DNA of 64,000 nucleotides from Patescibacteria group bacterium (GTDB lineage Bacteria > Patescibacteriota > WWE3 > UBA101185 > UBA10185), in contig JAUMAA010000003.1 in the NCBI GenBank assembly GCA_032117075.1, forward strand, positions 41,574-105,573, read 5' to 3'. Positions 1,083 to 51,511 of this stretch are shown in pieces; position 1 is the first letter of the stretch; the number at the start of each line of letters is the position of its first letter. The notes beneath the pieces are model-generated. The model was not told the origin of the DNA. It ran no database searches and saw nothing but the letters and a program-made list of their open reading frames with translations. A program made the position numbers and the translations under genes.

Positions 1083-1790
1083 TTACTTCCAGTAAGTCTC
1101 CATCGAATCCCACAAATGTGTGTAATGCATTCTCCCAATCTCAGCAACAGCCTCTGCATATTCCCTAATCTCAGCTTGAGCATCAGGTTTGTTACGAAGA
1201 CTTACGAAGTGCATAACAGCTTGAGGACTGACGGTCCAGTAAAAACTCGTGTATGTAGAAAGCGGTAGAGTAAGACGAGCTTGCTCCATAGCTATACCGG
1301 CCGCTGCCATCTCCTTGTAGAGTGCGATGGAAGCCTCTTGAACTTCATCATACCTACGCTTGAAATTTTCGCTTTGAGGATGAACCTCGTCGGTCCGACC
1401 CTGTTTGCGATTCTTTGCCTGGAAATAGAAATACTGTGGTGTGTAAAAACTACTATATTCTACATACCTACCAGAAAGTTCATTCCAAGGCAAATCTTTA
1501 TAGGAGTAATCGGACCCAACCACATGTTTGAACCACTGCCTAGCTACAACCTCTGGACAATGAACATACAAAGTGATGTAACTGTGGCGAAAAGGCGAAC
1601 TGTGCAAGTTTTGTGCAAGCCAATCAAGAAATTTCTTGTCTTTAGAAAAGTCAAAAGTGGTTTGCCTTTTCCCAAAACTAGCTCTAGCGACGTTGACCGC
1701 CTTAAGACTTGGGTCCATACTCATCCAGTCATACAACTCAACCAAACCAACACCATCCCTCATGTAAATAGGGTCAGTTTTATTAGACAT
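1083..1790 (-). CDS. thyX: Flavin-dependent thymidylate synthase (ThyX)-like protein, divergent
   Basis: Aligns by eye to T. maritima ThyX blocks (GLVEL..RASF; H..PF.H...T.....P..VARQWF.H; ELSGRY; ARLTLPLSTYTSFYWTV...HFVSLR). The RHR motif is replaced by KHV and a 12-aa insert precedes ELSGRY. The likely start is the internal ATG (MSNKTD) preceded by the TAGGAGGA RBS; the ORF track extends to 1823. GC is about 45-48% versus about 30% in the surroundings. Confidence 0.65.
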   Translation of the reverse strand: MSNKTDPIYMRDGVGLVELYDWMSMDPSLKAVNVARASFGKRQTTFDFSKDKKFLDWLAQNLHSSPFRHSYITLYVHCPEVVARQWFKHVVGSDYSYKDLPWNELSGRYVEYSSFYTPQYFYFQAKNRKQGRTDEVHPQSENFKRRYDEVQEASIALYKEMAAAGIAMEQARLTLPLSTYTSFYWTVSPQAVMHFVSLRNKPDAQAEIREYAEAVAEIGRMHYTHLWDSMETYWK

Positions 1791-13152: not shown

Positions 13153-14216
13153 AACCCTTACTTTATAATAATTATAAAATTTCAGAAAACCTATTTGTAG
13201 TGAAAAGAGAAGAAAAAATTTTCTTTACTGAAATTTATAGTCTTTCAGATGGAAATTATCTTTTCTTATTTTTAAATATTAAACCAGATGAAGTGGTAAA
13301 TATAAATCAAGAATTAGAAATTGTAAAATTAAACATTGGAGGAGAAAACTATTTAGGTGTAATAGCTGACAGCTTTTCAGGAGAAAAAATTTATGAAATT
13401 TCTGAAAAACTCACTCAAATAAAAGGTTTGGATAGTGTTGCTGGAATGAAAGAATTGAAAAATCTTTTATATAATGAGGTCATAGAACCCTTAAGAAACC
13501 CAGAAAAGTTTAAAAAATTTAAAATATCAATACCTAACGGAATTTTACTTTTTGGACCTCCAGGCTGTGGTAAAACTTATATTGTAAAAAAATTGGCCGA
13601 AGAGTTAGGTTATTCGTTTATAGAACTTAACCCTTCTTCAGTTGCATCCCCCTATATTCACGGTGCAGTTTCAAATATCGGAAAAGTTTTTGAGATGGCA
13701 AGACTTCAAGCACCGTCTATTATCTTCATTGATGAAATAGAAGGATTACTTCCAAAAAGAGAAGATTTAGGATCCCATGCAGATACTAAAAAAGAGGAAA
13801 TAAATGAATTTTTACTCCAGCTAAATAATTCCAGTGAGAGCAATGTTTTAGTTGTAGGAGCTACAAATAGACCATCTATTATTGATTCGGCAATTTTAAG
13901 ATCAGGAAGAATGGACAAAAGAATATATGTAGGTCCACCGGATTATGAGTCAAGAAAAGAGTTGTTCAAACTTTCTCTATTAGGCAGACCTTTTGATAAT
14001 AAAATTAATTTGGACAAACTAGCTAAAGTTACTGAAAATTATGTAAGTTCTGATATATCTTTGATAGTTAATCAATCCGCAAGAAATGCACTTCAAAATA
14101 ACCAAGAGTATATAACAGAAGAAAATATTTTAAATATAATAAAAAATACTATTCCATCCATCTCAGAAGAGGATTTGAACTACTATCAGAACTATAGAAA
14201 TCTTGAAAGGTGGTAA
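13149..14216 (+). CDS. AAA+ ATPase, classical clade (Vps4/katanin/FtsH-like single AAA domain) with an N-terminal domain of about 120 aa
   Basis: Walker A GPPGCGKT, Walker B IIFIDEIE, SRH ATNRPSIIDSAILRSGRMDKRIYVGPPD. Confidence 0.85.
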   Translation: MKPLLYNNYKISENLFVVKREEKIFFTEIYSLSDGNYLFLFLNIKPDEVVNINQELEIVKLNIGGENYLGVIADSFSGEKIYEISEKLTQIKGLDSVAGMKELKNLLYNEVIEPLRNPEKFKKFKISIPNGILLFGPPGCGKTYIVKKLAEELGYSFIELNPSSVASPYIHGAVSNIGKVFEMARLQAPSIIFIDEIEGLLPKREDLGSHADTKKEEINEFLLQLNNSSESNVLVVGATNRPSIIDSAILRSGRMDKRIYVGPPDYESRKELFKLSLLGRPFDNKINLDKLAKVTENYVSSDISLIVNQSARNALQNNQEYITEENILNIIKNTIPSISEEDLNYYQNYRNLERW

Positions 14217-14265: not shown

Positions 14266-14997
14266 TTATTTCTTTTTGATAATCATTAAAATTTCTTTAG
14301 TTTCAGAACCTTGACTTTGAGGTATTTCTTTAAAACTTACTTCGCAAGAAAGACCCAGGGCTTCAATAATATCTAAATAATATTTTTGAGATTTATTCCT
14401 TAATTCTTCAAGATTTCTATATCTAAGATTTGATTTGATAACAGGAAATATCCTAACCTCACCACCTACCTTTAAAATATTAAAAACATTTGTTAAATAC
14501 TTTTTAAATTCTTTTTCGCCTTCCTCATGAAGGTAGAGTCCAGGCCCAAAAGTATCGACAATTAAATCAAAAGCCCCATCCTTAAAGGGCAAGTTTGGAG
14601 CAAAGGCAGCCACAGCCAACCCATCACTTCCTTTAAGCCTTTCTTCTCTTACCTTTTGAGGATCCTCATCTTTTCCTGCAAAGTAATAATCTTTATTGTT
14701 ATCAATAATTTTATTAGTGTAATAAATTGACTGGATATCTCCTTTTTGATCTCTTTCAACCACACTTAAAAAATCTTTTTTGCTAATAGCTAGTGTTGGG
14801 TCCAAAGAAATAACTTGTAAATCAGGTCTTTTAGCAGAAAGACCCGCTGCAAAATTTCTAAAAACACCGCTTCCAACTTCAAGAACTCTAGCTTTTTCTG
14901 GTAAATTTTGAATAAAGGCATCTGACAGATCTAAATAAGGGGAGAGCTGTTCAAAACTTCTATTGGTTACATAAAAACTTGTTTCTTTATTTATCAT
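14266..14997 (-). CDS. Class I SAM-dependent methyltransferase-like protein
   Basis: Motif I VLEVGSGV, acidic end of beta2 (SLDP), FDLIVDTFGPGLYL, LKVGGEVRIF. Paralog of 15008-15808. Confidence 0.55.
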   Translation of the reverse strand: MINKETSFYVTNRSFEQLSPYLDLSDAFIQNLPEKARVLEVGSGVFRNFAAGLSAKRPDLQVISLDPTLAISKKDFLSVVERDQKGDIQSIYYTNKIIDNNKDYYFAGKDEDPQKVREERLKGSDGLAVAAFAPNLPFKDGAFDLIVDTFGPGLYLHEEGEKEFKKYLTNVFNILKVGGEVRIFPVIKSNLRYRNLEELRNKSQKYYLDIIEALGLSCEVSFKEIPQSQGSETKEILMIIKKK

Positions 14998-16452: not shown

Positions 16453-17142
16453 ATGAATCAAATAATTATATTTCACGAATTTGAAATTGAAATCATCCGA
16501 AAAAGAATTAAAAATATTCATCTTAGAATAAATCTTGAAGGCCAGATTACTTTAAGCACCCCAAAAAATATCAAGGAAGACTATTTGTTAGAGTTTCTTG
16601 AGTCAAAAATAGAATGGATCCGAACTTCTTTAAAAAAAACAGAAGCAAAAATAAAATACAGTAATAAAAAACTAACACACGGAGAAAAACATTATCTTTT
16701 TGGAAAAGAGCTCGTTTTAAACCTTCAAGAAGAAAAAGTTAAAAAAAGTGAAATATTTCTTTTAAATAATACTAATCTAGTAATGAGGGTACACCCTACA
16801 GTTAGTCAAAGAACTAGAGAAAAGTATATGCAAAAATGGTACGAAGAAAAATTAATTTTAGAAACAGAGAAATTTTTTGAAAAATGGGAAGAAGAATTAG
16901 GAGTAAGTAAAAAAGAATTAGTAATTAAAAAAATGAAAGGTAAATGGGGCTATTGTGAATGTAGAAGAAAGGTTATTTGTTTAAACACAGAGTTAGCTAA
17001 AAGAAACATTGATTTTGTTGAATATGTTGTCCTCCACGAACTGTGCCATTTGCTTGTCCCTAACCACGGACCAGACTTTAAAAAACTACTTAATATTCAT
17101 ATGCCTAAGTGGAAAATTATTAAAAACTCTGAAGAAATCTAG
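16453..17142 (+). CDS. YgjP/DUF45-like (M48/WLM-type) metal-dependent hydrolase
   Basis: C-terminal HExxH (VVLHELCHLLVPNHGPDF) typical of the YgjP family. Confidence 0.7.
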   Translation: MNQIIIFHEFEIEIIRKRIKNIHLRINLEGQITLSTPKNIKEDYLLEFLESKIEWIRTSLKKTEAKIKYSNKKLTHGEKHYLFGKELVLNLQEEKVKKSEIFLLNNTNLVMRVHPTVSQRTREKYMQKWYEEKLILETEKFFEKWEEELGVSKKELVIKKMKGKWGYCECRRKVICLNTELAKRNIDFVEYVVLHELCHLLVPNHGPDFKKLLNIHMPKWKIIKNSEEI

Positions 17143-17155
17143 TAACCTATAATAT

Positions 17156-17183
17156 TTGCAAAGGTAGAAAATTTTGTTATAAT
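17156..17183 (+). promoter_or_regulatory. Sigma70-like promoter TTGCAA-16nt-TATAAT for small peptide cassette A
   Basis: TTGCAA 17156-17161, TATAAT 17178-17183. The predicted TSS falls at the start of the GTTGCTGAGGT box (17190-17200). Confidence 0.45.
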
Positions 17184-17213
17184 ACTGGGGTTGCTGAGGT
17201 AGAGGGAGGTGCT

Positions 17214-17444
17214 ATGAGTTTGATATACTCGATAATTGGTTTTTGTTGGAAGTTTTTGCTAGCCATCTACAATATAGCCATCAAATTGGGGATTGTAGCA
17301 TCAGCTGTAGGATCAATAACTTTGTTGATGATTTTCTTAATGGGATATATCTCATTAGATTATCTCTGGAAAGGAGAAATAGTTATACTTGTAAGTGGCC
17401 TAATTTTAGGCTTTTTAAACAAGGTACTATTTGACGATCTTTAA
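17214..17444 (+). CDS. Small hydrophobic membrane peptide (76 aa), family with 21751-21924 (shared Y..KGEI motif)
   Basis: GAGGGAGG RBS. Two or three TM helices. Flanked by GTTGCTGAGGT (17190-17200) and its perfect complement ACCTCAGCAAC (17471-17481). Confidence 0.5.
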   Translation: MSLIYSIIGFCWKFLLAIYNIAIKLGIVASAVGSITLLMIFLMGYISLDYLWKGEIVILVSGLILGFLNKVLFDDL

Positions 17445-17511
17445 AAAAATTACTCCAAACTAATCTATTAACCTCAGCAACAACACAATTTTTCCTATAT
17501 AATGATTAAAT

Positions 17512-18231
17512 ATGAATAAAGAATATAATATTTCCAGAAGTAAAATTGATTTATTTATTGAATGTCCAAGATGTTTTTATCTTGATGTAAACGGGATTGT
17601 AAAAAGACCATCAGGACCTGGTTTTTCATTAAATTCTGCCGTAGACGAACTTTTAAAAAAAGAATTCGATTTACTTAGAGAAGAAAAAAAACCTCACTCA
17701 TTAATGGAGAAATTTGGAATAAGAGCAATCCCATACCAACATCCAGAATTAGATAAATTTCGACACAACTTTACCGGAGTTAGATATAAACATCCAAACG
17801 GAATTACTTTTTTTGGAGCTGTTGATGACCTTTGGATCAATGAAAATGGAGAAATTCATGTTGTTGACTATAAAGCAACCTCTACATCTGCGGAAGTTAC
17901 TTTAGAAGGGGAATACAAAGAAGGATACAAAAGACAAATTGAAATTTACCAATATCTTTTATCTAAAAATAATTTTCCTATTTCAAATATTGGATATTTT
18001 GTCTATGCAAATGCTAGAAAAGATTTAGATGCTTTCAATGAAAAATTGATTTTTGATGTCAAAATTTTACCTTACGAAGCAAATAATTCTTGGATTGAGG
18101 AGGTAATTAGTAATCTTTACAAAACATTAAGTAGCGAAGAGATACCTCTGCCAAATGAAACTTGTAAATATTGTGATTACATCAAAAAATATAATCAAAG
18201 TTTAAATAATCAACAATTGAGATTGTTTTAG
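17512..18231 (+). CDS. Cas4-like PD-(D/E)xK nuclease (DUF83/RecB-family) with four Cys
   Basis: N-terminal ECPRCFYL (Cas4-like CPR..YL), motif II VDDLW, motif III VVDYKAT, QxxxY (RQIEIYQYLL), C-terminal CKYCDY. Confidence 0.65.
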   Translation: MNKEYNISRSKIDLFIECPRCFYLDVNGIVKRPSGPGFSLNSAVDELLKKEFDLLREEKKPHSLMEKFGIRAIPYQHPELDKFRHNFTGVRYKHPNGITFFGAVDDLWINENGEIHVVDYKATSTSAEVTLEGEYKEGYKRQIEIYQYLLSKNNFPISNIGYFVYANARKDLDAFNEKLIFDVKILPYEANNSWIEEVISNLYKTLSSEEIPLPNETCKYCDYIKKYNQSLNNQQLRLF

Positions 18232-18245
18232 AAAATTAAGTAGAT

Positions 18246-18274
18246 GGCGGGAGTTGGCTATACCAACTCCCGAT
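18246..18274 (+). terminator. Rho-independent terminator
   Basis: ggcgggagttgg-ctata-ccaactcccg followed by ATTTTCGG. Confidence 0.6.
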
Positions 18275-21057: not shown

Positions 21058-21655
21058 AGATTTATTCAATACTTTAGTTCCTGTAGTTGTTGAAAAAGAA
21101 GGTAATTACGAGAGATCGTACGATATCTACTCAAGACTACTTAAAGATTTTATTATTTTCGTTACAGGACCTATAGATATGGCAACAGCCAATACATTTA
21201 TTGCTCAAATGTTATTTTTAGAAGCAACTGACCCTACCAGAGACATAAAAATTTATATCAATTCTCCAGGAGGGGAAGCTTATTCTGGAAGAGCTATGTT
21301 TGATACAGTTAGACATGTAAAAAATGATGTTGTTACTATCAATACAGGACTTTGTGCATCTGCTGCCGCTTTACTTTTATGTTCTGGAACTAAAGGTAAA
21401 AGATACTCACTTCCAGGTGCTCATACTATGATTCACCAAACATTGGGTGGGGCAGAAGGACAAGCAACTGATGTTGAGATTTATGCAAAACAAATGGTTA
21501 AAATGAAACATGATTATGCCAAACTAATTGCAGTAGCCTCAGGAAAATCTTTTGAAGAGGTCTTAAAAGACATTGAAAGAGACAACTGGATGGACTCACA
21601 AGAAACTAAAGATTACGGAATCATAGATGAAGTAATTGAACCTGCAAAGAAATAA
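21044..21655 (+). CDS. clpP: ATP-dependent Clp protease proteolytic subunit ClpP
   Basis: Catalytic Ser context GLCASAAALL, His MIHQ, typical ClpP length. Confidence 0.9.
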   Translation: MMKNKDLFNTLVPVVVEKEGNYERSYDIYSRLLKDFIIFVTGPIDMATANTFIAQMLFLEATDPTRDIKIYINSPGGEAYSGRAMFDTVRHVKNDVVTINTGLCASAAALLLCSGTKGKRYSLPGAHTMIHQTLGGAEGQATDVEIYAKQMVKMKHDYAKLIAVASGKSFEEVLKDIERDNWMDSQETKDYGIIDEVIEPAKK

Positions 21656-21679
21656 TCTAAATAAAAATAACCTATAATT

Positions 21680-21708
21680 TTGACTTGACCTTGAATTTGA
21701 GGTATAAT
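21680..21708 (+). promoter_or_regulatory. Consensus sigma70 promoter TTGACT-17nt-TATAAT for small peptide cassette B
   Basis: TTGACT 21680-21685, TATAAT 21703-21708, followed 6 nt later by GTTGCTGAGGT (21715-21725). Confidence 0.5.
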
Positions 21709-21750
21709 ATATTCGTTGCTGAGGTTAGATCATACGAGAGGAGATCTAAT

Positions 21751-21924
21751 ATGAGACTGTTAGATATACTGGTTTGGGGCCTAAGATGGTCAATTACCTT
21801 AATCTTTTTCCTTCTTTTGGTAAGTATGTCTATGACATATTTTACAAAAGGGGAGATAATGAGTGTGGAACCACTGTTTAGTTCCGGGGTAACAACGGCG
21901 GTACTCTGGTACTTCAAAGACTAA
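21751..21924 (+). CDS. Small hydrophobic membrane peptide (57 aa), homolog of 17214-17444 (Y.TKGEI motif)
   Basis: GAGAGGAG RBS. Same flanking boxes: GTTGCTGAGGT upstream, ACCTCAGCAACAACACAA at 21941-21958. The track ORF begins further upstream (21685), but the RBS supports 21751. Confidence 0.5.
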   Translation: MRLLDILVWGLRWSITLIFFLLLVSMSMTYFTKGEIMSVEPLFSSGVTTAVLWYFKD

Positions 21925-22009
21925 CCAACAAAACTATCAAACCTCAGCAACAACACAAATTTCAATTTCTAATCAATTCTTAATAATATTGTATAATTAA
22001 CCATACTGT

Positions 22010-22086
22010 GGTCTGTTAGCTCAGTTGGTTAGAGCGCTTCAGTGACATTGAAGAGGTCATTGGTTCGAATCCAATACGGACCACCA
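22010..22086 (+). tRNA. tRNA-Val (anticodon GAC), 77 nt, CCA encoded
   Basis: Hand-folded: acceptor ggtctgt/acggacc (one G-U), D-arm gctc..gagc, anticodon stem cttca/tgaag with loop guGACau, T-arm attgg-TTCGAAT-ccaat, terminal ACCA. Confidence 0.85.
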
Positions 22087-31822: not shown

Positions 31823-33016
31823 ATGGAACAAGAAAAAATTCATGAACTTTTATTTAGAAATATCGATGAAATATTACCTTCCAAAGAATTTCTTCTTTCA
31901 AAAGTAGAGAAGGGCGAAAAGATTAAAATTTACCACGGAATAGACCCTACCTCAGAAACATTACATATAGGACATTTGGCAGCTTTAAAGAAAATGAAAC
32001 ATTTTCAAGAACTAGGATGGGAAGTTATTATTTTAATGGGCGGGATGACAGCAACAATTGGGGACCCGAGTGGAAAATCAAAAGTAAGAAATAAACTTAC
32101 AGTTTCAGATGTAAATAAAAATATTGAAAAAATTAAGAAACAAATTGAAAAAGTAATCTCATTTGATGGAGCAAACAAAGCATCTCTTCTTAACAACTAT
32201 GATTGGCTATCAAAATTAAATTTTGAAGAGATAGTTGAATTATCATCAAATATTACTCATGAACAAATGATTGAGAGAGACATGTTTCAAGAAAGAATGA
32301 AAAATCACGAACCAATATACATGCATGAATTTATGTACCCACTCATGCAGGGATTTGATTCAGTAGAAATGGATGTCGATGCGGAATTAGGAGGAAGTGA
32401 CCAACTTTTCAATATGATGATGGGAAGAACTTTACTTAAAAAAATTAAGGGTAAAGAAAAATTTGTAATTACAATTCCACTATTAACAGATTCGAATGGG
32501 AAAAAAATTGGAAAATCAGAAGGAAATATAATTCCTTTTGCAAACGGTAATCCTTACGAAACATTTGCTGGAATTATGACCTTAGGAGATAGTGTAATAA
32601 TCAAATGTTTTGTAGCACTTACCGATGTATCTTTGGAAGAAGTTTCAATCATGGAGATTGACATGCAAAAAAATGGAGCCAATCCTATGGTCTATAAAAA
32701 GCTTTTAGCCTTCACCTTAGTTAAGGAAATTTACAACGAAGAAGAAGCTAAAAAATGCCACGAAGAATTTGAAAAAACAGTACAAAATAAAGAATTTTCC
32801 GAGAACCAATCTGTAGAAATTGAAGTACAGGAGGAAGAAAAAGTATTAGATTTTTTAAAAAGAAATTTAACAGGATTCTCCAACTCTGAAATTAAACAAG
32901 TAATTGAACAAAACGGTCTTTTAATAAATAATGAAAAAGTATCCGATTTAAACTTTTTAATTAAAAAAGGAGACGAAATTAAATTTGGGAAGAAAAACTT
33001 TTTTAGATTAAAATAA
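31823..33016 (+). CDS. tyrS: Tyrosine--tRNA ligase
   Basis: HIGH motif (TLHIGHL), KMSKS-like KIGKSEGN, C-terminal S4-like domain. Confidence 0.8.
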   Translation: MEQEKIHELLFRNIDEILPSKEFLLSKVEKGEKIKIYHGIDPTSETLHIGHLAALKKMKHFQELGWEVIILMGGMTATIGDPSGKSKVRNKLTVSDVNKNIEKIKKQIEKVISFDGANKASLLNNYDWLSKLNFEEIVELSSNITHEQMIERDMFQERMKNHEPIYMHEFMYPLMQGFDSVEMDVDAELGGSDQLFNMMMGRTLLKKIKGKEKFVITIPLLTDSNGKKIGKSEGNIIPFANGNPYETFAGIMTLGDSVIIKCFVALTDVSLEEVSIMEIDMQKNGANPMVYKKLLAFTLVKEIYNEEEAKKCHEEFEKTVQNKEFSENQSVEIEVQEEEKVLDFLKRNLTGFSNSEIKQVIEQNGLLINNEKVSDLNFLIKKGDEIKFGKKNFFRLK

Positions 33017-39206: not shown

Positions 39207-39859
39207 TTTTGAGAAACAGTTTCTTCTAAATATCTATTGATAAAATCAGTAAATTTCATATCATTTAAAATATCATTTATAGGTGCATCTATTGAGGACT
39301 GAACTTTGGTCTTATTAAATACTGTTCTAGCAACAAACGAAACTCTGTAATATTTATTATCTCGATCATCAAATAACTCCAAATCTCTAATATTTATAAT
39401 CTTTCCTTTATTACTATTTAGAGATGTGAGGTAATTTAATGCAGATAGGGGACCAACTGTTCTACCATTAAACCTTACTTCAATAACTCCTTGGTTGCTT
39501 AAATTCTGATCCGCTATATTTTTGTTTTCATCTATCTTATTGAAATTAAATTTCTCGGCTTCTGCTCCTAAATTTGCAACTAATGGAGCAGGGGACTCAT
39601 CGTTAGGAACTAGCTCTACCATCTTTTCTTCGTATCTATTTAAATCATCAGCTTTATCTCTAGCATTTTGCAGGATATTTAATTTAGTTTGATAATTTGT
39701 AATTTGTAAATTTTTACCATCCCTGGTTGAATCTAATTCAGATTTAATATTTAAGTAAGGCATTATAAGTAACAAATTTATTATTGCAATTAAAGTAATA
39801 AAAATTACTGGAAAAATGAAGTATTTTAAATAAATAGTGAAGTCTTTTTTATCTGACAT
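39203..39859 (-). CDS. Type IV pilus assembly protein PilO-like (bitopic)
   Basis: N-terminal TM plus periplasmic domain; position after PilM/PilN. Confidence 0.5.
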   Translation of the reverse strand: MSDKKDFTIYLKYFIFPVIFITLIAIINLLLIMPYLNIKSELDSTRDGKNLQITNYQTKLNILQNARDKADDLNRYEEKMVELVPNDESPAPLVANLGAEAEKFNFNKIDENKNIADQNLSNQGVIEVRFNGRTVGPLSALNYLTSLNSNKGKIINIRDLELFDDRDNKYYRVSFVARTVFNKTKVQSSIDAPINDILNDMKFTDFINRYLEETVSQN

Positions 39860-40418
39860 TTAAGAGTCCTTTATTATATTTTACAGTAACAACATATTCT
39901 TTGGAAACCTCATTAACATCCTCAGGCACACCAGAGTTGCTAAATAAGTTTTCAATATTTGAGTCATTTACTTTAGAAGCTTTTAAGTTATCAACAAATC
40001 TTTTAAATGCAGTTGAGTCAGCGGTAACTCTTACCGAAACAAGGTCTTTATCGGTATCTACCGTAATAGTTTTAATAACCACACCTCCAGAAATATTTCG
40101 TTCATAAATATCTCTCATAACTTTTTCGTATAAAACCTTATCTCCTTCAAATTTTTGAGCAGCATCAAATCTAGCTTTAATATCTCTTAACTGAATTTCT
40201 TCCTTAGAATATTCCGCAATGTCTTTTCTCAAGGAAGTTAGTTTTGAATCTAGACTATCTTTTTCATTTTTCAATGGCTGTAAAAGAGTATTAAAATAGT
40301 AGCCCAAACTCCCGACCGCAAGCATTGTTAATATCAAAAAAATATTCGCAATCTTGGTATAAAGCTGAATTTTTTGCTCTAATTTCTCTTCTGATGTTAG
40401 TAAATTTATTTCACTCAT
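39849..40418 (-). CDS. Type IV pilus assembly protein PilN-like (bitopic, coiled coil)
   Basis: Short N-terminus, TM, coiled coil; directly downstream of pilM. Confidence 0.55.
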   Translation of the reverse strand: MSEINLLTSEEKLEQKIQLYTKIANIFLILTMLAVGSLGYYFNTLLQPLKNEKDSLDSKLTSLRKDIAEYSKEEIQLRDIKARFDAAQKFEGDKVLYEKVMRDIYERNISGGVVIKTITVDTDKDLVSVRVTADSTAFKRFVDNLKASKVNDSNIENLFSNSGVPEDVNEVSKEYVVTVKYNKGLLNVR

Positions 40419-41440
40419 AAAATCTCAATTCCTGATAGACCTATTGGTGCAGATAGAGAGGAGGATAATTCTTTTAAACTTCCTTCATACTTACTTAAAT
40501 CAGAATTGACTTTAACTTTATTAAAAGGATTAAATACCTCTACAGGTATATTTAAATTTTTCTGCAAGTAATCCTCAAGACCAGGTAATTTAGCCATTCC
40601 CCCTGTTAGATAAATTTTAGAAATATTCATGTTTTTATTCTTATCCATAAAATAAATTACTGACCTCTTAATATCAAGTATATATGAATCTATTAAAGGT
40701 TTTAAGAAATTAAAAATCTTTCCCTCCGCGACTTGAGGATTTAGACCGTAAGCCTTTTTATAATTCTCAGCTTGGATATTTGTTAGATTTAAATTCTGAA
40801 TTAAAGCTTTATTTAAGGAATTAGATCCTATTGAGATAGTTTTAATAAATCTTGGAACTCTTTTATAAGAAACATGTAAAGTAGAGAACTGGTACCCAAA
40901 ATCAAGAATCATAACAGCATCTTTACCATCTTTAATATCTATAATTCTAGATAAGGAAATTGTTTTTGCTTCAAATACTTTAGGGGTTAGGCCTGCTTTT
41001 TTAATTAAATCAACATATCTTTCGATTCTTTCTTTTTTAGCTGCCACAATTAAAATTTCAACATTAGTAGAATCTTTTTGATCAATAATTTTGTAATCAT
41101 AAGTTAAATTAGCAATATTCTCGGGAAAAATCTCAGCTGCTTGGAGATTAATATAGTTTCGGATTTCTTTATCACTCATCTTAGGAATGACTTTTACATT
41201 CAAATAAACATCTGTCTCGGGTAACGATAAAGAAACTTCATTAGTAGGAAAATCAAGTTCTTTAAAAAATTCCTTTAACTTGAAAGAATATAAATTTATA
41301 GCTTCTTCGTTATTGAAATCCAATTTTAATTTTTCTGATTCATATATTGCAAAATTTAAAATAGTAGGGGACTTTGAAACCAAACCAACCTCAACACATT
41401 TGATGCTATGATTTCCTAAATCTATTCCAATATGAGTCAT
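40415..41440 (-). CDS. pilM: Type IV pilus assembly ATPase-like protein PilM (actin fold)
   Basis: N-terminal IGIDLGNHSIKCVEV and the actin-like ATPase fold length. Confidence 0.8.
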   Translation of the reverse strand: MTHIGIDLGNHSIKCVEVGLVSKSPTILNFAIYESEKLKLDFNNEEAINLYSFKLKEFFKELDFPTNEVSLSLPETDVYLNVKVIPKMSDKEIRNYINLQAAEIFPENIANLTYDYKIIDQKDSTNVEILIVAAKKERIERYVDLIKKAGLTPKVFEAKTISLSRIIDIKDGKDAVMILDFGYQFSTLHVSYKRVPRFIKTISIGSNSLNKALIQNLNLTNIQAENYKKAYGLNPQVAEGKIFNFLKPLIDSYILDIKRSVIYFMDKNKNMNISKIYLTGGMAKLPGLEDYLQKNLNIPVEVFNPFNKVKVNSDLSKYEGSLKELSSSLSAPIGLSGIEIL

Positions 41441-41464
41441 ATAATTTATTATACTTAATTTTAG

Positions 41465-41947
41465 TTATTGTTGATATGTTTTATTCAAAGTAATTCTTTT
41501 TTCAAATTTAACTTCTGTTTTTAATCTTGAATTATTAAAATCTTTAGAAATACCAAAGGAAATATAAACAACTTGTGGGTTAGTTCCAGTTACTGTAAGA
41601 ACAAAAGGTGCTGATTTACCTATCTCTGAATCAGTTAATTGAATATTATCTAGTACCAACATGCTACTTGATTCTATAAAGGAAAGAGTAAAAGTTTTAG
41701 TTGGGTAAACAATCGATAACTTTTTACTTACAGAATTGTATGAAACAGAGTCAGAATCTTGAATTAATTTAGTAAGTTTAACATTTAGAAATGAGTACTC
41801 CTCTTCAAGAGAAATTTTATTTTGAATTTTAGTTGAGGTGGATGTTAGGCTAATAATCATATCTGAAGAAATTACGGATACGACTGTAATTAGTAAAACT
41901 ACTACCAAGAGTTCGACTAGAGTAAAACCCTTATTATTTAATCTCAC
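41465..41947 (-). CDS. Prepilin-type minor pilin/pseudopilin
   Basis: NKGFTLVELLVVVLLI class III signal peptide (G-F-T-L-x-E). Confidence 0.7.
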   Translation of the reverse strand: MRLNNKGFTLVELLVVVLLITVVSVISSDMIISLTSTSTKIQNKISLEEEYSFLNVKLTKLIQDSDSVSYNSVSKKLSIVYPTKTFTLSFIESSSMLVLDNIQLTDSEIGKSAPFVLTVTGTNPQVVYISFGISKDFNNSRLKTEVKFEKRITLNKTYQQ

Positions 41948-42414
41948 TGTCTAGTCCTCCAATTTGTAAAAATAGTATCAGTAGAAGATGAGAAGAGAAT
42001 TTTATTGGTTTCATAATAACTAACTACTTGAATATTTATTTCCACTATAGGTAAAGATGAGAGTGGTTCTGTGGTTACCTTAAAGCAAGTAAGTCCTTTT
42101 TGAACTGGAGAAGGGCAACTTGTAAAATTATTAGTCGATGGATTAGGAAAATAACAATAAGTATTAGTACATCTACTATTTAATTCTGTCGAAAAAGAAT
42201 CAAACCCAGTATCTTTGATAACTCTTAATTTTTCTAAAACATTTGATGAGTTTTTAGTTGCTTCTTGTCTCTCTGTAACATTAAGTGAATTTTGAATATT
42301 GAAAGTGGTGAGAGAAAGGAGTGCAACCACTAATACAACTGCAAATGCTATAGCTAAGACAGCTTCAACTAATCCTATTCCTTTATTATTTACTTTGAGC
42401 ATAGATTCTTCCAA
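41944..42414 (-). CDS. Prepilin-type minor pilin (PilV-like)
   Basis: NNKGIGLVEAVLAIAF prepilin N-terminus. Confidence 0.6.
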   Translation of the reverse strand: MEESMLKVNNKGIGLVEAVLAIAFAVVLVVALLSLTTFNIQNSLNVTERQEATKNSSNVLEKLRVIKDTGFDSFSTELNSRCTNTYCYFPNPSTNNFTSCPSPVQKGLTCFKVTTEPLSSLPIVEINIQVVSYYETNKILFSSSTDTIFTNWRTRQ

Positions 42415-42820
42415 ATTTATTAATAATTACATTAAATGATGGGAAATTGATTGTTACAGAAATCAAATTATTATTTTGATCAACTAAGTTACCATATCTA
42501 TCTATAAAAAAATTTGAGGTACTTGATCCTGAAATAAAGTCATAGTTTGTTTCTTTACATTCATTTAACTCAACAGAGCAAGTAGTTACTTTCAAACCGG
42601 CAAAGTTCATAGAATATTTGTTATCCGTTGTTAAGGCAAGGTTTTGAGTTGTTCTAAATGTAGAAATAAAATTTTTAACTTCTTCGTTTTCAGCTTGTTT
42701 TCTCTGATAATTTAAAATAGAAGGAATCGAAAGACCTGCAATTACAATTATCAATACAATCACAACAAGAAGTTCGATAAATGTAAAACCAGAATTTGAA
42801 TTAAGCTTCTTTATCTGCAT
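42386..42820 (-). CDS. Prepilin-type minor pilin
   Basis: NSGFTFIELLVVIVLI. Confidence 0.7.
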   Translation of the reverse strand: MQIKKLNSNSGFTFIELLVVIVLIIVIAGLSIPSILNYQRKQAENEEVKNFISTFRTTQNLALTTDNKYSMNFAGLKVTTCSVELNECKETNYDFISGSSTSNFFIDRYGNLVDQNNNLISVTINFPSFNVIINKFGRIYAQSK

Positions 42821-43335
42821 TAAGGACCTGTAACAGGAGCCAGACCTCCACTAACCTTAAATACATTACTTTTAACTAAATCGCAACTAGAAAACAGCCC
42901 TGAGGTAGGATCCATACTTTCTTTAGGTATCTCTAGGATAAATTCTTGACCTCTGGGGATTCCAAAATTACTACTTTCTTTAATTGAATAAACCTCATAA
43001 TAACTTTGAGTTATATTAGTTACATAAATGTAATCGCAGGAAGTATTTTCAGATGGATCGTATAAGGAAACTTTAACATTAAAAGAACTTAGCTCCGAGA
43101 TAGCTGAAGGGTATCTTTTGTATTCAGAGTAGTAGAGTTCTAAAGCAGAAGCAATCTGTGAAAGAGAAGATACTCTTAGAGCGTCCCTTTGTTCCCTTTG
43201 TTTTTCGGCTGGATTAAAGATGACAATAGAAGTAGCTGCAAGTATCACCATTATTCCAACTACAATCATTAACTCTAGCAAAGTAAAACCTTTATTACTT
43301 ACATTAAATTTTTTGGTATATGAGCAGTTTTTCAT
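42820..43335 (-). CDS. Prepilin-type pilin
   Basis: NKGFTLLELMIVVGIMVILA. Confidence 0.7.
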   Translation of the reverse strand: MKNCSYTKKFNVSNKGFTLLELMIVVGIMVILAATSIVIFNPAEKQREQRDALRVSSLSQIASALELYYSEYKRYPSAISELSSFNVKVSLYDPSENTSCDYIYVTNITQSYYEVYSIKESSNFGIPRGQEFILEIPKESMDPTSGLFSSCDLVKSNVFKVSGGLAPVTGP

Positions 43336-43348
43336 TTTTTTCCTTTAA

Positions 43349-44218
43349 TTAATTATCTAAAAATAGAGCATAATCATAAATAGATGATGGTGTATCCAGA
43401 TATTTAAATGCCTCAACTCTTCTGGAGGTTTTATCAACTCCGTCAGTAAATACTCCTTTTGCAGTAATTTTGTACCCTTGAATTACATTTCTTACATTTG
43501 TACTGGTTGAAAAAACTTTAAGAGTACTTACTTCGTTGGAAAGAGGTTGAAATCTTATCATGTAAGAATTTGTAACTCTAAAGTAACCAGAGGCACAATT
43601 TCCTGTAATAGGAGAGATATTTTTATAAGAACTACCATCAAATAAATAGTTTTCAAGTAAATATTCGTTAGTTTTAACTCTGTTTACATTTGTAGTAGTT
43701 AGTGAATCTTCTACAGGTTCAAAAATTTGAATACTTGGGTTTGATGTAACAATACCAAGTCTATATGATGTATTTGGAGGGGACACTTCCAATTTAATAC
43801 ATGCAGTTTGAGGTAAAAGTACTCCGGCTCCTGAAAACTCGGTGGTTAAAAAAGTGACCGTCTCAGAAGGTTTAATTTTTTCGTAAACCATACCGGTACT
43901 TGAATTTGCATTTAATTTATCAACAGTAATGATTGCGGAAGTTCCGTTGTTTACAAAATCAATAGCTTCACTAAATTCCGTATTATCTACTAATAGATCT
44001 AAATCGGAGTCACTCTTTAATAAAAATTTTTCAAGGCCGCCTTCGGCGGCCGCTGTTACTTTTTGTAATGAATCCAAATTTCCAGTTCTTTTAAGGGATT
44101 CTGTACTTCTTGAGGTAATTCCTAAACCTACACCCAGTGTTACTGCCATTGCTACTACAACAATTAAGAGAACCTGACCTTTATTATCTAAATTGTTTGA
44201 CATATCTTTATTAATCAT
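43349..44218 (-). CDS. Pilus-associated protein with hydrophobic N-terminus (PilX-like?)
   Basis: NKGQVLLIVVVAMAVTLGVGLG hydrophobic helix lacking the Glu5; Thr/Ser/Val-rich. Confidence 0.4.
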   Translation of the reverse strand: MINKDMSNNLDNKGQVLLIVVVAMAVTLGVGLGITSRSTESLKRTGNLDSLQKVTAAAEGGLEKFLLKSDSDLDLLVDNTEFSEAIDFVNNGTSAIITVDKLNANSSTGMVYEKIKPSETVTFLTTEFSGAGVLLPQTACIKLEVSPPNTSYRLGIVTSNPSIQIFEPVEDSLTTTNVNRVKTNEYLLENYLFDGSSYKNISPITGNCASGYFRVTNSYMIRFQPLSNEVSTLKVFSTSTNVRNVIQGYKITAKGVFTDGVDKTSRRVEAFKYLDTPSSIYDYALFLDN

Positions 44219-44229
44219 ACTAGTAACTT

Positions 44230-47200
44230 TTAATCATTAAAATACTTAAATATTGTTTTGCTTCTTGTAACATTAAACATCTTATAAGACCTCAGGTCTT
44301 GTTGTAAATAAATTAATACATCTGGGTTTTGAGAAATATTTATAAAGGATCTATCTTCATTTTGAGTACTTAAATTTCCAATTAATTTAAAGTCTCCATA
44401 GATACCACCTTTTAAGTGATAAACTGCTCTATTGCCACAAATAAGAGAATAGTTCTCTAAATCAGAACAATCCACATGGAAAACAATTCTCTCTTTGATA
44501 TTTGATTTATCAGTTGAAACAAAGTAAACATTTTCTAAGTTGTTATAAATATTTAAATCTGTAAGATCAAAGTATAGTTGTTTATTTTTTGCAACATAAA
44601 TTATTGTTGGAGTTGCAGATACTGGAACACTGTTAAAAGCATCAATTTTATTGAAATTATTTACAGAGCCCGATGGTTTCGTGTCTGTTAGTAGTAAAGA
44701 AGTAACTTGTGTTTCAGGTAAGGCATAGTCAACTAAATTTTCAGTATAACTAAAATTAAATGCCTTAGTCAGCTTATCAAAATAAGGAATATTAAAATAA
44801 GAAGGACCCATCAAAGTATTACTTAATCTAAAATTTTTACCGCCCTGAGCAGAACCTGAAACATAAACACCTTCATACCTTTTATCCACATCAGAAGTAG
44901 TATAAAACTTTACATCACTTGATCTTTTTATCATTGTATTTCCGTTAACTCTAAAATTTAAGTAAGAGGTAGGAGGCTGAACATTTCCGGAGGTTAAATA
45001 AATATCTAAAGATTGAGGAACTAAATTATAACTATTAACTACATTTGATTTATAAAACAAATCCAAACATCCATTATTGATTGTTCCGGTAAAGTAGTTA
45101 TTAGAAATAGAGCTGGTTGATGTAGTTGTTGAATTTGTAAATCCAATTCTACTTACTTTAGTATCAGCAGTATTGGTAAAACAAATTTTATATTTCACAT
45201 TATCAATCAAAGTATTACCTGATTTACTTAGGTCATGATCCCAGAAAAAATTAGAAAAGGTATCTTTATGCAGTGTGAATGAAGATTCACCGTCGGGTGC
45301 GGTAAGATTTCTTTGTTGAGGAGTAACATTTTTGAAAGTTTTGGTTACAACCATTTTGGCATCGGCAAAAGGATCCTGATCTTGATTATCTAAATAAGTA
45401 AATATATTTATGAAACTTTGAAGTGTGTAATACCTATTAGGATCTATACCTAAAGATGGGTAATTATAGACAGTTCCGTTGTAATTAAAACTTATTTTAT
45501 AAAAATATTTCTCAAAATTAGGTGACTTAACATTTAAAAAATTAAAAGATTTTCTATCAGACAATAAATTTGCAGCTAAAGTTGTCGGAAGTGGGGCAGA
45601 GGTAATGCCGTCATAAAGAGTAAGATACATTTTAGTTCCAGCGGGAACATTTACTATACCTGAGGGGCAGCTTAAATTAATAGCCGAATTAAATGTGTAA
45701 TTTAGGTTATAAGTAGAAGTTGTTGTATCAATAGCAGAGGGTACTATTCCTTTATTTATAGAATTTGGATCTGTATTTATAAGAGTTAAACCACCCGCAA
45801 CTAGATTGTAATTAGGCACACACTCTGGGGTAGTTGGAGGGACTTTTGAAGTTAGAACATAGTTTCTAGAAACAAAAATTGCATAATCATTATCTGTATT
45901 TGCATCATCGTTATTGTAATATCTAAATGTTAATGGAGCATTATTTCCGGGCCCAAGAGAAGGGAATTTGTAACCTCCGTTTGTTTCATTTAATTCAAAG
46001 AGTCTGTGTGTTCCAGTGGGTGAATTAAATTTTTCAGCCCTAAACATTCTAGACTTTGCACTTAAGTTATTCTTAGAATCTACAAAATTAGGAGCAATTA
46101 AAATATCGACATCATTTCCAGAATTTACACTAAAGCTAACATTCTTCAAGTAACTCAGAGAAACATTTCGTAGTGCAATAAATTTTGTTTGAGTTGGCTG
46201 ATTCCCCATGTACCCACTAAATTCAAACCTCTTAAATACTAAATTGCTGTTGGCATACTGAAGGGTGAAGTAGTATTTATCTGAGACATAATCAGCCAAG
46301 ACACCTGATCCTACACCTAATTTTGGTACAACCTCGAAGGTTAGAAGGGAGGGTACCGGTTCAAATTTATAGTTTTCTATTCTATACTTGTAGTACCAGT
46401 CACTAGAACCTGGGAAATAGATTCTTACTAGATCAACTCTATTTTTAAGGTTATAGGCTGCTAACGGAGAATCGTAACCCCCAAATACCCAATTTAAGGA
46501 ACTCTGATTCTGAAGTGTAGGATTGAACCCGTAATAGACTCTATTATAAAAGTCTTTGTAGTCCCCTTTGTTATCTTTAAATATCCCATAATTTGGAAAT
46601 TTTATAGCTGATGCGTTACTCCACTCATGTCTATTATCTCCACTTGAGCTAACCCTTAAAACCATATTAATACCGTATTCAAGTTCTGAAAAAGGAGCGG
46701 CACAGTTATTTTTCGACTTCCCAATACAATATGACTTAGCATCCCTAGTGGCACTTCCTCCAGAACTTGGACCCTGGTTTACAAATATATTAGGGTTTAA
46801 AGATAATCTAGGTCCAGAAAAAGAAGAAGGAGCTACATTGAAGGACATCCTGGTAATGTTTGGATAGTTGTAGTACTGACTGTAACCTTCTTTATTCAAA
46901 GTAACACATTGATACCTCCTATCCCAGCATGATTCAGTAGCTGAAAGACGACAATTACTTTCTAGAGGTACACCAAGAGTTTGAGCCCTTCTTAAGCATT
47001 CAACATTTCCCCTATATGTAGTTCCCCAACCACCTTGCGGATCCTTTCTTTCATAACATCTATTCTCCAACAGATCTTCAAGACCTCCGCCTCCAAAAAT
47101 AACGGTATTATTTTTTTTGGCTATAGAAGAAGGAAACCAGCTAGACTTACATCCAGCTGTATAGCCAACATTTCCAAATGTTTTAAAAGACCTAGTGATA

Positions 47201-47781
47201 TTAACGACACTTTGAGGGTTTGTATTTAAAAGAATTTCATAAAAACCACCATAATAAACAAGTAATGGGACCCCACTAATATTTTCTAAGACAGGATTAC
47301 CATAATATTCAATTCCTGAACTATTTATTTGGACATTAGGCACTGCTACAGTTGATGTAACTGTAGTGGAAACCGCATAACTAGTAGTATAGGTATTATT
47401 AAAAGAGGTGTTAGATGAAAAATCAGAAACAGAAGACACTCCGAAAGTTGGTAATCTATTTACAGTTACAATATTTGTAATCTGTTGATCAACAGTTTTA
47501 ATAGAGTAGGTGGTTTTAGTACAAAAGAAATCCATAAATGGCTGACTATCGTCACACTCAGGTCTAATAACATCTTTCATAAGATAGTTAGTGACTTTAT
47601 AAACATCTTCTGTTTCAGTAGTAGCGGCTAATACTTGAGACCAATCATCTTCCTGGTTAGTGTTTTGATTTGAAATTAAATTAGGGTAGAAGTAGTATCC
47701 AGTAAAAATTAAAACGGATAACATAAATAATTTTATGATCGTCCAATTTGAAATTTTACTAGGAAGTGTAATTCTACCCAT
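44230..47781 (-). CDS. Very large (1183 aa) N/S/T/Y-rich secreted/surface protein encoded within the T4P locus (PilY1-like tip adhesin role possible)
   Basis: Single N-terminal TM/signal anchor, beta-rich low-complexity composition, sits between the pilD and minor pilin genes. Confidence 0.55.
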   Translation of the reverse strand: MGRITLPSKISNWTIIKLFMLSVLIFTGYYFYPNLISNQNTNQEDDWSQVLAATTETEDVYKVTNYLMKDVIRPECDDSQPFMDFFCTKTTYSIKTVDQQITNIVTVNRLPTFGVSSVSDFSSNTSFNNTYTTSYAVSTTVTSTVAVPNVQINSSGIEYYGNPVLENISGVPLLVYYGGFYEILLNTNPQSVVNITRSFKTFGNVGYTAGCKSSWFPSSIAKKNNTVIFGGGGLEDLLENRCYERKDPQGGWGTTYRGNVECLRRAQTLGVPLESNCRLSATESCWDRRYQCVTLNKEGYSQYYNYPNITRMSFNVAPSSFSGPRLSLNPNIFVNQGPSSGGSATRDAKSYCIGKSKNNCAAPFSELEYGINMVLRVSSSGDNRHEWSNASAIKFPNYGIFKDNKGDYKDFYNRVYYGFNPTLQNQSSLNWVFGGYDSPLAAYNLKNRVDLVRIYFPGSSDWYYKYRIENYKFEPVPSLLTFEVVPKLGVGSGVLADYVSDKYYFTLQYANSNLVFKRFEFSGYMGNQPTQTKFIALRNVSLSYLKNVSFSVNSGNDVDILIAPNFVDSKNNLSAKSRMFRAEKFNSPTGTHRLFELNETNGGYKFPSLGPGNNAPLTFRYYNNDDANTDNDYAIFVSRNYVLTSKVPPTTPECVPNYNLVAGGLTLINTDPNSINKGIVPSAIDTTTSTYNLNYTFNSAINLSCPSGIVNVPAGTKMYLTLYDGITSAPLPTTLAANLLSDRKSFNFLNVKSPNFEKYFYKISFNYNGTVYNYPSLGIDPNRYYTLQSFINIFTYLDNQDQDPFADAKMVVTKTFKNVTPQQRNLTAPDGESSFTLHKDTFSNFFWDHDLSKSGNTLIDNVKYKICFTNTADTKVSRIGFTNSTTTSTSSISNNYFTGTINNGCLDLFYKSNVVNSYNLVPQSLDIYLTSGNVQPPTSYLNFRVNGNTMIKRSSDVKFYTTSDVDKRYEGVYVSGSAQGGKNFRLSNTLMGPSYFNIPYFDKLTKAFNFSYTENLVDYALPETQVTSLLLTDTKPSGSVNNFNKIDAFNSVPVSATPTIIYVAKNKQLYFDLTDLNIYNNLENVYFVSTDKSNIKERIVFHVDCSDLENYSLICGNRAVYHLKGGIYGDFKLIGNLSTQNEDRSFINISQNPDVLIYLQQDLRSYKMFNVTRSKTIFKYFND

Positions 47782-47829
47782 ACTATTATTAAAACATATT
47801 TTATGAAAATAATTTTATAAAAACTAATT

Positions 47830-48588
47830 TTAAAAAGAAAAAATTGAAAAGATAAAGGAAAAAAGAGCACCTATCACCAAAAAAGGACCAAAAGGAATTT
47901 GGGATTTTAGTTTTTTTAATTTGAAAATTAAAACTAAAATCCCAAACACACCCCCTAAAATAAATCCAAAATAAAGTGCAGAAATGTTTGCTGGGTAACC
48001 AACTACAATGGAGATAAAACATGCTAGTTTTAAATCCCCACCACCCATACCACCTTTAGATAAAAGTATGATTAGATAAAAAATTGTAAAAATAATAAAA
48101 ACCGATAAAAATTCGGTAAATAAATTATCAAGTGATAAATTTTGCAATATTAAACTTCTATATAAAATTGAAAAAATACTTCCAAAAACAATTATTTCAA
48201 AAGGAATCTCATAAAATTTAAAATCAGTAAAACTAATAATTAAAAATAATGAAAAAATAATTAACAGATATATAAGAAAATTTATTTCAAAATTTTGAAT
48301 CACGGTAATGTAGTATGCAAAAACAAAACTAACACCAGTTAGAATTTCAGAAACAGGGTAGAGTAGTGATAATTTATGACCGCAATAAGAACATCTTCCT
48401 TTTTGGAGTATAAAACTAATAATTGGAATTAGGTTGATAGCCTCAAGCTGATGTCCGCAATGATCACATTTGGATCTGTCTGTAAGAAAGTTTTCCTTAC
48501 GATAAAGGCGGTCGGAAACAACATTAAGGAATGATCCAAGGAATATTCCTAAGAAAAATAATGTTGTTCCGACCGCCCAATCAAACAT
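47830..48588 (-). CDS. pilD: Prepilin peptidase (A24 family)
   Basis: N-terminal tetra-Cys (CDHCGHQL..CSYCGHKL) plus a polytopic membrane domain with GGMGGGDLKL. Confidence 0.8.
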   Translation of the reverse strand: MFDWAVGTTLFFLGIFLGSFLNVVSDRLYRKENFLTDRSKCDHCGHQLEAINLIPIISFILQKGRCSYCGHKLSLLYPVSEILTGVSFVFAYYITVIQNFEINFLIYLLIIFSLFLIISFTDFKFYEIPFEIIVFGSIFSILYRSLILQNLSLDNLFTEFLSVFIIFTIFYLIILLSKGGMGGGDLKLACFISIVVGYPANISALYFGFILGGVFGILVLIFKLKKLKSQIPFGPFLVIGALFSFIFSIFSF

Positions 48589-48600
48589 CTTAAAACCTAA

Positions 48601-49167: not shown

Positions 49168-49169
49168 AT

Positions 49170-50381: not shown

Positions 50382-50383
50382 AA

Positions 50384-51445: not shown

Positions 51446-51511
51446 ATTATAATTTACCTACTAAATTAATTGCCATATTTTAAATCTATATTATTTTCAA
51501 ATTAAATACAA

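Follow-up and report, generated by a model that had tools for sequence, protein, structure and literature searches.

To our knowledge, end-to-end pairing of a bacterial mRNA has been documented by experiment in only a handful of cases, namely hok, aapA1, hbs and icaR. In the hbs mRNA of B. subtilis, a fully complementary interaction of ~14 nt between the 5′ and 3′ untranslated regions (UTRs), with an energy of −19 kcal/mol, leaves the ribosome-binding site (RBS) free (PMC5737220). Compensatory mutants show that the interaction limits both RNase Y cleavage and decay from the 3′ side (Braun, Durand & Condon 2017, PMC5737220). The element described here, cassette B, lies at 21667-21958 on the plus strand of a 64,000-nucleotide stretch (the window) taken from contig JAUMAA010000003.1 of a Patescibacteria group bacterium (positions 41,574 to 105,573 of the forward strand). 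It belongs to a lineage-restricted family of small, self-contained gene units, and it is well supported, with high confidence, that the two ends of the mRNA from these units pair with each other. Sequence comparison shows that selection preserves the pairing and not the sequence of the paired arms.

Cassette B consists of an upstream motif, a promoter, a 5′ arm, a Shine-Dalgarno (SD) sequence, an open reading frame (ORF), a 3′ arm and a tail. The original prediction, made from the window alone, described a perfect TTGACT-17-TATAAT promoter with an 11-nt box 6 nt later, followed by a hydrophobic ORF of 57 aa with its RBS and then a 3′ box, and all of these are found where it placed them. The sigma-70-type promoter occupies 21680-21708 and scores 11/12, the highest value across the 5.4 kb scanned. 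The 5′ box GTTGCTGAGGT (21715-21725) begins 6 nt past the −10 box and forms most of the 5′ arm GTTGCTGAGGTT (21715-21726), which starts at the predicted first transcribed base. The SD sequence GAGAGGAG (21736-21743), as read from the sequence, precedes the AUG by 7 nt and is not part of the helix. ORF B (21751-21924; translation MRLLDILVWGLRWSITLIFFLLLVSMSMTYFTKGEIMSVEPLFSSGVTTAVLWYFKD) carries a KGEI loop motif. The 3′ arm AACCTCAGCAAC (21940-21951) follows 15 nt past the stop codon and is complementary to the 5′ arm; the 18-mer 3′ box ACCTCAGCAACAACACAA (21941-21958) overlaps both arm and tail. The tail itself, AACACAA (21952-21958), is (AAC)n-like, has the same letters in cassette B and in its paralogue, cassette A (17142-17488, plus strand), and is followed by a T-run. 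The arms of cassette B form 12 bp (21715-21726 with 21940-21951), then an A.A mismatch and three extra pairs, with a predicted pair probability of 1.00 and a duplex energy of −19.1 kcal/mol. With the arms paired, the fold energy lies well below that of shuffled controls in both cassettes (z = −4.8 for B and −3.4 for A).

Relatives of these units are hard to reach through the peptides. Single-peptide searches return only P0001, the orthologue of ORF B, from 5.8 billion sequences, and P0001 together with P0002, the orthologue of ORF A, from 1.84 billion representatives. Because the peptides retrieve almost nothing, relatives were found through synteny, using contigs with close ClpP homologues and 80 metagenome loci that carry the PDDEXK/Cas4-like gene found downstream of cassette A. 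Contigs of extra family proteins from a profile search were added. The result is a set of 15 cassettes with nine distinct arm sequences on related freshwater metagenome contigs (designated by L numbers below), so that the element does have further copies and is conserved in related genomes.

In all cassettes the arms pair, through 10-16 Watson-Crick bp, and the duplex energies range from −15.6 to −25.9 kcal/mol. The predicted pair probability in full-length transcripts is 1.00 and the helix is present in every predicted fold. The sequences that form it differ widely, as in the pairs GTTGCTGAGGT/ACCTCAGCAAC, GTTGCGGTAGC/GCTACCGCAAC, GTTGCTGTACC/GGTACAGCAAC, GTTGTTGTGGG/CCCACAACAAC and GTTGCTATAG/CTATAGCAAC. 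Covariation was tested on a gapless arm alignment of 14 cassettes and 17 helix positions, against 500 shuffles and with slid registers as a control. Paired cells amount to 81.5% in the alignment and 66.6% in the shuffles. Double-sided compensatory changes are found at 13 of the 17 positions and one-sided changes at none. The 41 compensatory cells compare with 15.6 ± 2.9 in the shuffles, none of which (0/500) reaches 41, and with 5-17 in the slid registers. A core, GTTG(C/T)...(G/A)CAAC, is nearly constant; the bases around it vary, always on both sides. This covariation indicates that complementarity is selected and not a fixed sequence, which argues against a protein-binding operator. It also gives substance to the earlier view, drawn from the two copies in the window, that conserved termini around a diverged coding interior reflect selection on RNA structure or signals. 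The position of the helix agrees with this. The gap between the −10 box and the helix is 6 nt in 10 of the 15 cassettes and 3-5 nt in the other five, and an outer limit 6 nt past TATAAT, the canonical position of a transcription start, is what is expected if only transcribed bases are selected.

The proposed role of the pairing is a stabilising closure of the mRNA from end to end, a reading whose function we infer and to which we give an even chance of being correct. The helix would turn the entire message into a closed loop of some 240-390 nt. With the 5′ terminus paired and the 3′ side held in the same duplex, neither end would be open to RNases that enter at free ends or at single-stranded sites. 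The message would then resist 5′-end-dependent and 3′-exonucleolytic decay and be long-lived, as experiment has established for hbs. The closure might in addition time translation, as it does in hok and AapA1 toxin mRNAs. In all 15 cassettes the helix overlaps neither the SD sequence nor the AUG nor the ORF, its 5′ strand ending 13-24 nt short of the AUG and its 3′ strand beginning 10-47 nt beyond the stop codon. At distances of at least 13 nt and at least 10 nt, respectively, it should stay closed during initiation, translation and termination. These distances are just outside the span covered by an initiating or terminating ribosome. A more far-reaching version is conceivable but doubtful, namely a closed-loop messenger design in which a helix anchored at +1 stays shut during translation and its spacing matches the edges of the ribosome footprint. 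If true, the message would be exonuclease-proof, and its start and stop codons would lie a few tens of nucleotides apart so that terminating ribosomes could re-initiate. It would represent a prokaryotic counterpart of eukaryotic mRNA circularisation in the reduced-genome Patescibacteria, serving a fast-evolving family of membrane proteins with variable copy number. That trimmed ends are ligated through the AACAC tail, giving a truly circular mRNA, is at best extremely improbable.

Several points weigh against a stabilising closure. The transcription start, the 3′ end and the half-life are predicted or inferred quantities. There is no intrinsic terminator at the end of either cassette in the window, 7-8 non-U bases separating the helix from the T-run, although canonical terminators do occur nearby (18248-18272 and 19087-19063); the 3′ arm may therefore sit within a longer read-through RNA unless this is processed. 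A simple clamp leaves three sequence-level constraints unaccounted for, namely the conserved core, the AACAC tail and the upstream motif. G-U pairs are absent from the helix, which is unusual for a constraint acting on RNA only and fits a DNA-level inverted repeat too. Finally, in four arm types, accounting for 5 of the 15 cassettes (L001A, L001B, L014, L020 and L107c), the complementarity reaches 1-3 nt upstream of the predicted start. A test for strand asymmetry beyond the helix is uninformative, with 11 G-U against 14 A-C combinations.

The last two of these points, the absence of G-U pairs and the complementarity upstream of the start, keep a role at the DNA level alive at low probability. 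In its explicit form, recombination between the arms would invert the segment and turn the ORF around with respect to a fixed promoter, giving phase variation. Perfect complementarity free of G-T pairs, a shared core, arms that are identical between A and B in this genome and a promoter just outside the repeat are all in keeping with such a device. However, the ORF is in the sense orientation in every assembled copy, on related contigs from many samples, and the flipped strand would expose neither an RBS nor an ORF. No recombinase was found in the flanking genes or in a scan of 20 of the larger proteins of the window. The arm sequences vary by lineage with their pairing kept, something that a sequence-specific recombinase would not favour. 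An invertible segment is thus very improbable.

The lack of terminators has also to be considered in terms of RNA processing. A double-strand-specific RNase of the RNase III or Mini-III type could cut the helix and thereby excise the mRNA from read-through transcripts and set its ends, in the manner of rRNA precursors and phage T7 early mRNAs. The tandem units of L043 and L107 do succeed one another without terminators, and the helices are perfect Watson-Crick duplexes. Classical RNase III substrates extend over roughly two helical turns, however, and helices of 10-16 bp fall below this length. With a 5′ arm that begins at the predicted transcription start, there would be nothing to remove on the 5′ side, and each unit has a promoter of its own. 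A processing stem is accordingly considered rather improbable.

The 3′ UTRs of the cassettes (e.g., 17445-17488 and 21925-21958) are A/C-rich and almost free of G; in the window cassettes the sole G between the stop codon and the tail sits in the arm itself. An unstructured spacer, a Rho-loading site and a protein-binding site are candidates for the function of this composition. AACAC is found 0-3 nt past the 3′ arm in most relatives, with a tail consensus of AACAC(A/T)A followed by the T-run.

Small hydrophobic proteins made from mRNAs with paired ends bring to mind type I toxins. In a toxin mRNA of the hok/AapA1 kind, the small membrane protein would be toxic and end pairing would hold the full-length message stable but untranslated until slow 3′ trimming takes away the 3′ arm and the RNA refolds into a translatable form, possibly countered by an RNA antitoxin. 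The cassettes share with hok (tac/fbi stem, PMC9841398) and AapA1 (PMC5416894) a small hydrophobic ORF, a monocistronic layout, a dedicated promoter and covarying end pairing, and they match the descriptors of T1TAdb (PMC8594479). Their copy number varies, with 0-3 tandem units at one site and one dispersed copy, their turnover is rapid, and cassette B looks recently spread; tandem repeats and hydrophobicity are the criteria by which Fozo et al. looked for type I toxins. Against this, no position-conserved antisense (minus-strand) promoter is present in 11 cassettes, although a trans-encoded RNA elsewhere in the genome is possible. The predicted accessibility of the RBS with and without the 3′ arm changes in no consistent direction (Wilcoxon p = 0.22). 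A local 5′ hairpin, formed by the inner half of the 5′ arm and covering the SD sequence, exists in L014, L020/22/103, L043 and L107a/b and is missing from the other lineages; where present, it would close off the SD sequence in RNA lacking the 3′ arm, a polarity opposite to that of hok. The proteins, with 55-106 aa, a conserved C-terminal motif and a dN/dS of ~0.1-0.2, are bigger and more constrained than typical toxins. They resemble no known toxin family, and Rfam gives no match on either strand. In a scan of the whole window at gathering thresholds Rfam reports two tRNAs only, and scans of both cassettes on both strands in E-value mode give noise (E 0.76-7.3, far under the gathering scores). 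With no antisense partner found and no consistent direction in the predicted SD accessibility, the cassettes may work like hok or AapA1 but are not filed as members of these systems, and a toxin of this type is regarded as unlikely.

The ORFs of the family comprise 55-106 codons and are hydrophobic. Their length is conserved between orthologues, substitutions are conservative, and dN/dS is 0.08-0.22 in six diverged pairs; these values and the kept length indicate that the ORFs are real proteins under purifying selection. P0001 is called as a gene in six metagenome contigs. The proteins have an N-terminal amphipathic stretch with a conserved Trp, followed by two hydrophobic segments with a short polar loop (KGE, EEA or EQG) between them, and they end in a C-terminal motif such as LNKVLFDDL, VNGFIDDIL or LNKVFLDEV. 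They probably have two membrane helices. An AlphaFold2 model of peptide A from a 17-sequence alignment shows one continuous helix (pLDDT 81, pTM 0.41) and is judged uninformative. Pfam, PADLOC and PHROGs yield no significant family for the peptides, and searches of 5.8 and 1.84 billion proteins return the family itself only. Gene callers partly miss or mis-start this family of small ORFs. The orthologue of ORF A is uncalled in L001 (5517-5747, corresponding to 17214-17444 of the window), and that of L005 (P0002) is called with an upstream extension of 35 residues, from a TTG that overlaps the promoter.

The family occupies a narrow phylogenetic range. ClpP homologues form a tight clade of 83-99% identity and then fall to ~70%, where the first relatives with a name, metagenome-assembled genomes (MAGs) of WWE3/Patescibacteria, appear. 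On this ranking the source is taken to be an AT-rich, uncultured freshwater member of that group; the label 'Proteobacteria' on one MAG protein looks like a binning artefact. All cassettes belong to the close clade, in which the PDDEXK protein is at least 69% identical; at the equivalent site of loci whose PDDEXK protein is ~50% identical, no cassette was found. Among close relatives the intergenic site between the YgjP-like and PDDEXK genes (17143-17511 in the window) is a hot spot with 0-3 tandem units, each with its own promoter. One unit is found in the window, L001, L014, L020, L023, L024 and L103, two in L043 and three in tandem in L106/L107. L012 has none and carries unrelated genes there, on the opposite strand. 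A generic scan for a promoter, an inverted repeat and an enclosed ORF returns these units only. In L014 (5176-5470), L020 (5211-5520) and L103 (9655-9900), a conserved small soluble ORF of ~71-87 aa (MRELPISFEIVILLF...) is situated between the YgjP-like gene and the cassette, with a strong hairpin 3′ of it; this ORF is absent from the window.

Beyond these contigs, GTDB genomes were scanned with a pattern that strictly required the promoter, both arms and their spacing and that catches arms of the A/B type only. The six matches come from unrelated phyla, all lie inside coding sequence and are attributed to chance. In viral contigs, two looser patterns give ~120 matches each, and in none of these does an arm of 10 bp or more occur together with a promoter context and an ORF inside. 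These scans of viral contigs thus lend no support to a phage origin.

Cassette A has the same layout as cassette B, all on the plus strand. Its upstream motif GTAACCTATAA (17142-17152), which is similar to that of B, is followed by the promoter (17155-17183), the 5′ arm (17190-17200), the SD sequence (17204-17211), an ORF of 76 aa (17214-17444), the 3′ arm (17471-17481) and the tail (17482-17488). Chance is excluded as the source of the shared boxes and of their combination by match counts far above expectation. With up to one mismatch the 11-mer of the 5′ box has six matches in the window against 0.40 expected, the four exact ones forming two convergent pairs; the 18-mer 3′ box has two against 0.02, and promoter, 5′ box and 3′ box taken together as one pattern give two against 0.00. 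The one-mismatch copies of the 5′ box, at 1138-1148 (minus strand, in thyX) and 31949-31959 (minus strand, in another gene), are inside coding sequence without a partner arm and are judged chance matches. Peptides A and B share the motif Y-x-(W/T)-KGEI-(V/M), on which their homology had been proposed, and align at 37% identity; this is weak by itself, and once relatives are added A and B join one family. The reported identity of the boxes in the two copies holds in this genome but is peculiar to it, since cassette A of the closest relative has a different, compensated pair, GTTGCTGCG/CGCAGCAAC. Orthologues of cassette A are present at the same YgjP-like/PDDEXK site in all related contigs, and the cassette is more diverged (66-68% identity) than its flanks.

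Cassette B, by comparison of these loci, is a recent lineage-specific insertion between clpP and the tRNA-Val (GAC) gene (22010-22086), which is its downstream neighbour, as had been described, and no part of the cassette. The tRNA gene starts no more than 8 nt past the clpP stop codon in L014, L020, L022 and L109, and L014, L020 and L109 have neither a cassette nor a tRNA promoter at this site. An insert of ~350 bp, comprising cassette B and a new TGnTATAAT tRNA promoter, is found only in the window and in L001-L004 (ClpP at least 96% identical). The extended −10 element TGTATAAT of this promoter, as read from the sequence, is located at 21990-21997, 12 nt before the tRNA, which therefore need not depend on read-through. 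A tract spanning 21545-21953 (plus strand) is ~97.5% identical to L001 9790-10203, over a background of 60-87%. It covers the 3′ end of clpP and the whole of cassette B, and identity collapses right after the 3′ arm. This looks like a recent recombination or transfer tract, or else the mark of extreme constraint. Its most likely origin is an A-type unit that was duplicated, within a narrow lineage, into the spacer between clpP and tRNA-Val.

An ORF between inverted repeats, with a second copy inserted at a new site beside a tRNA gene, might also be taken for a miniature inverted-repeat transposable element (MITE) with the two boxes as its termini. The homology between the copies, however, extends past both arms, through the promoter and ATAACCTATAA upstream and AACACAA downstream, and no target-site duplication is seen at the B insertion in comparison with the empty sites of L014, L020 and L109. 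Only two copies, with diverged interiors, are present in 64 kb; cassette A is syntenic across the whole clade, and the pattern scans of viral contigs and GTDB genomes gave no true matches. The MITE reading is thereby largely refuted and retains next to no probability.

Other parts of the unit are conserved as well, each unit having a strong sigma-70-type promoter of its own and a strong RBS. A perfect TATAAT is found in every cassette of the relatives, a TTG-type −35 box lies 17 nt before the −10 box in ten units read by eye, and RBSs of the AGGAG/GGAGG type follow the 5′ arm in all cassettes. The upstream motif (ATAACCTATAA at 21667-21677, plus strand, in cassette B, with GTAACCTATAA as its counterpart in A) lies 2-3 nt before the −35 box and has the family consensus A-[ACT]-CC-Y-ATA-R. 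It is present at this distance in every cassette, those of L014, L020, L023, L024, L043 and L107 included. With one mismatch allowed, the form ATAACCYATAR shows no enrichment in the rest of the window, where 8 matches compare with an expectation of 8.5. The motif could be a factor-binding site or a vestigial, degenerate second −10 box.

The window has a G+C content of 31% and an ordinary chromosomal gene set that includes trigger factor, ClpP, gyrA/gyrB, RecG and a type IV pilus/secretion cluster. The latter (39849-53305) resembles type IV pilus and type II secretion systems, with PilM, a prepilin peptidase, T2SSF and two T2SSE ATPases, and contains an ORF of 1183 aa without a Pfam match. The PDDEXK/Cas4-like gene past cassette A has a TATAAT 6-8 nt before its start codon (stretch 17489-17514) and no SD sequence, a layout repeated in all relatives (L014, L020, L023 and L024). 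Its mRNA is probably leaderless, with the promoter predicted directly behind the cassette tail. A perfect inverted repeat of 15 nt, TATAGAAATCTTGAA/TTCAAGATTTCTATA, has its arms at 14193-14207 and 14407-14421, 199 nt apart, and extends across the region where an AAA ATPase gene and its minus-strand neighbour end convergently.

Taken as a whole, the cassettes represent an uncurated structured-mRNA element joined, within a narrow Patescibacteria-like clade, to an orphan family of small membrane proteins, the phenomenon of end pairing being already known. What sets them apart is the unusually clean covariation, with nine arm variants and zero one-sided changes. The simple geometry, in which the helix runs from the predicted first transcribed base and leaves RBS and ORF untouched, makes them an easy test-bed for the effect of end pairing alone on mRNA lifetime and ribosome recycling. 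Accessory genes of this kind could matter for a host-attached lifestyle or in conflict systems.

Among the known end-paired mRNAs, hok/sok of plasmid R1 and its chromosomal homologues (tac/fbi stem, PMC9841398) resemble the cassettes in that the extreme 5′ end of an mRNA for a hydrophobic peptide pairs with the 3′ end. The closed form of hok is very stable, and its pairing, like that of the cassettes, has phylogenetic covariation. The antisense RNA Sok, the overlapping leader ORF mok, the SD-sequestering ucb/dcb pairing and the 3′ terminator are features of hok that are undetectable in the cassettes, and the cassette peptides are longer and non-homologous. The transcript of aapA1/IsoA1 in Helicobacter pylori (Arnion et al. 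2017, PMC5416894) also encodes a small membrane peptide and folds through a 5′-3′ interaction, and members of that family are recognised by mRNA structure rather than by peptide sequence (PMC5416894). AapA1, however, has only 30 aa, the antisense IsoA1 is on the opposite strand, and 3′ processing activates translation (PMC5416894), whereas the cassettes show neither an antisense gene nor consistent sequestration of the SD sequence.

In icaR of Staphylococcus aureus (Ruiz de los Mozos et al. 2013, PMC3868564) the 3′ UTR likewise pairs with the 5′ UTR. There, an anti-SD motif in the 3′ UTR pairs with the SD sequence, blocks translation and invites RNase III (PMC3868564); in contrast, the helix avoids the SD sequence in 15 of 15 cassettes. 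The hbs mRNA differs in other respects. Its 5′ partner is within a long structured leader, whereas the cassette helix starts at the predicted +1; a normal terminator lies past its 3′ partner, where the cassettes have none; and it encodes a DNA-binding protein, unrelated to the predicted membrane proteins of the cassettes. The hbs interaction is experimental and that of the cassettes rests on covariation. Like the cassette messages, though, the hbs mRNA is short and monocistronic and encodes a small protein (92 aa) behind a strong SD sequence, its pairing is matched in length and energy by the cassette helices (10-16 bp, −15.6 to −25.9 kcal/mol), and the cassettes have the hbs-type combination of a fully complementary UTR stretch (about 14 nt in hbs) with a free RBS. 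Among analogues proven by experiment, the UTR interaction of hbs is the closest to the cassette helix.

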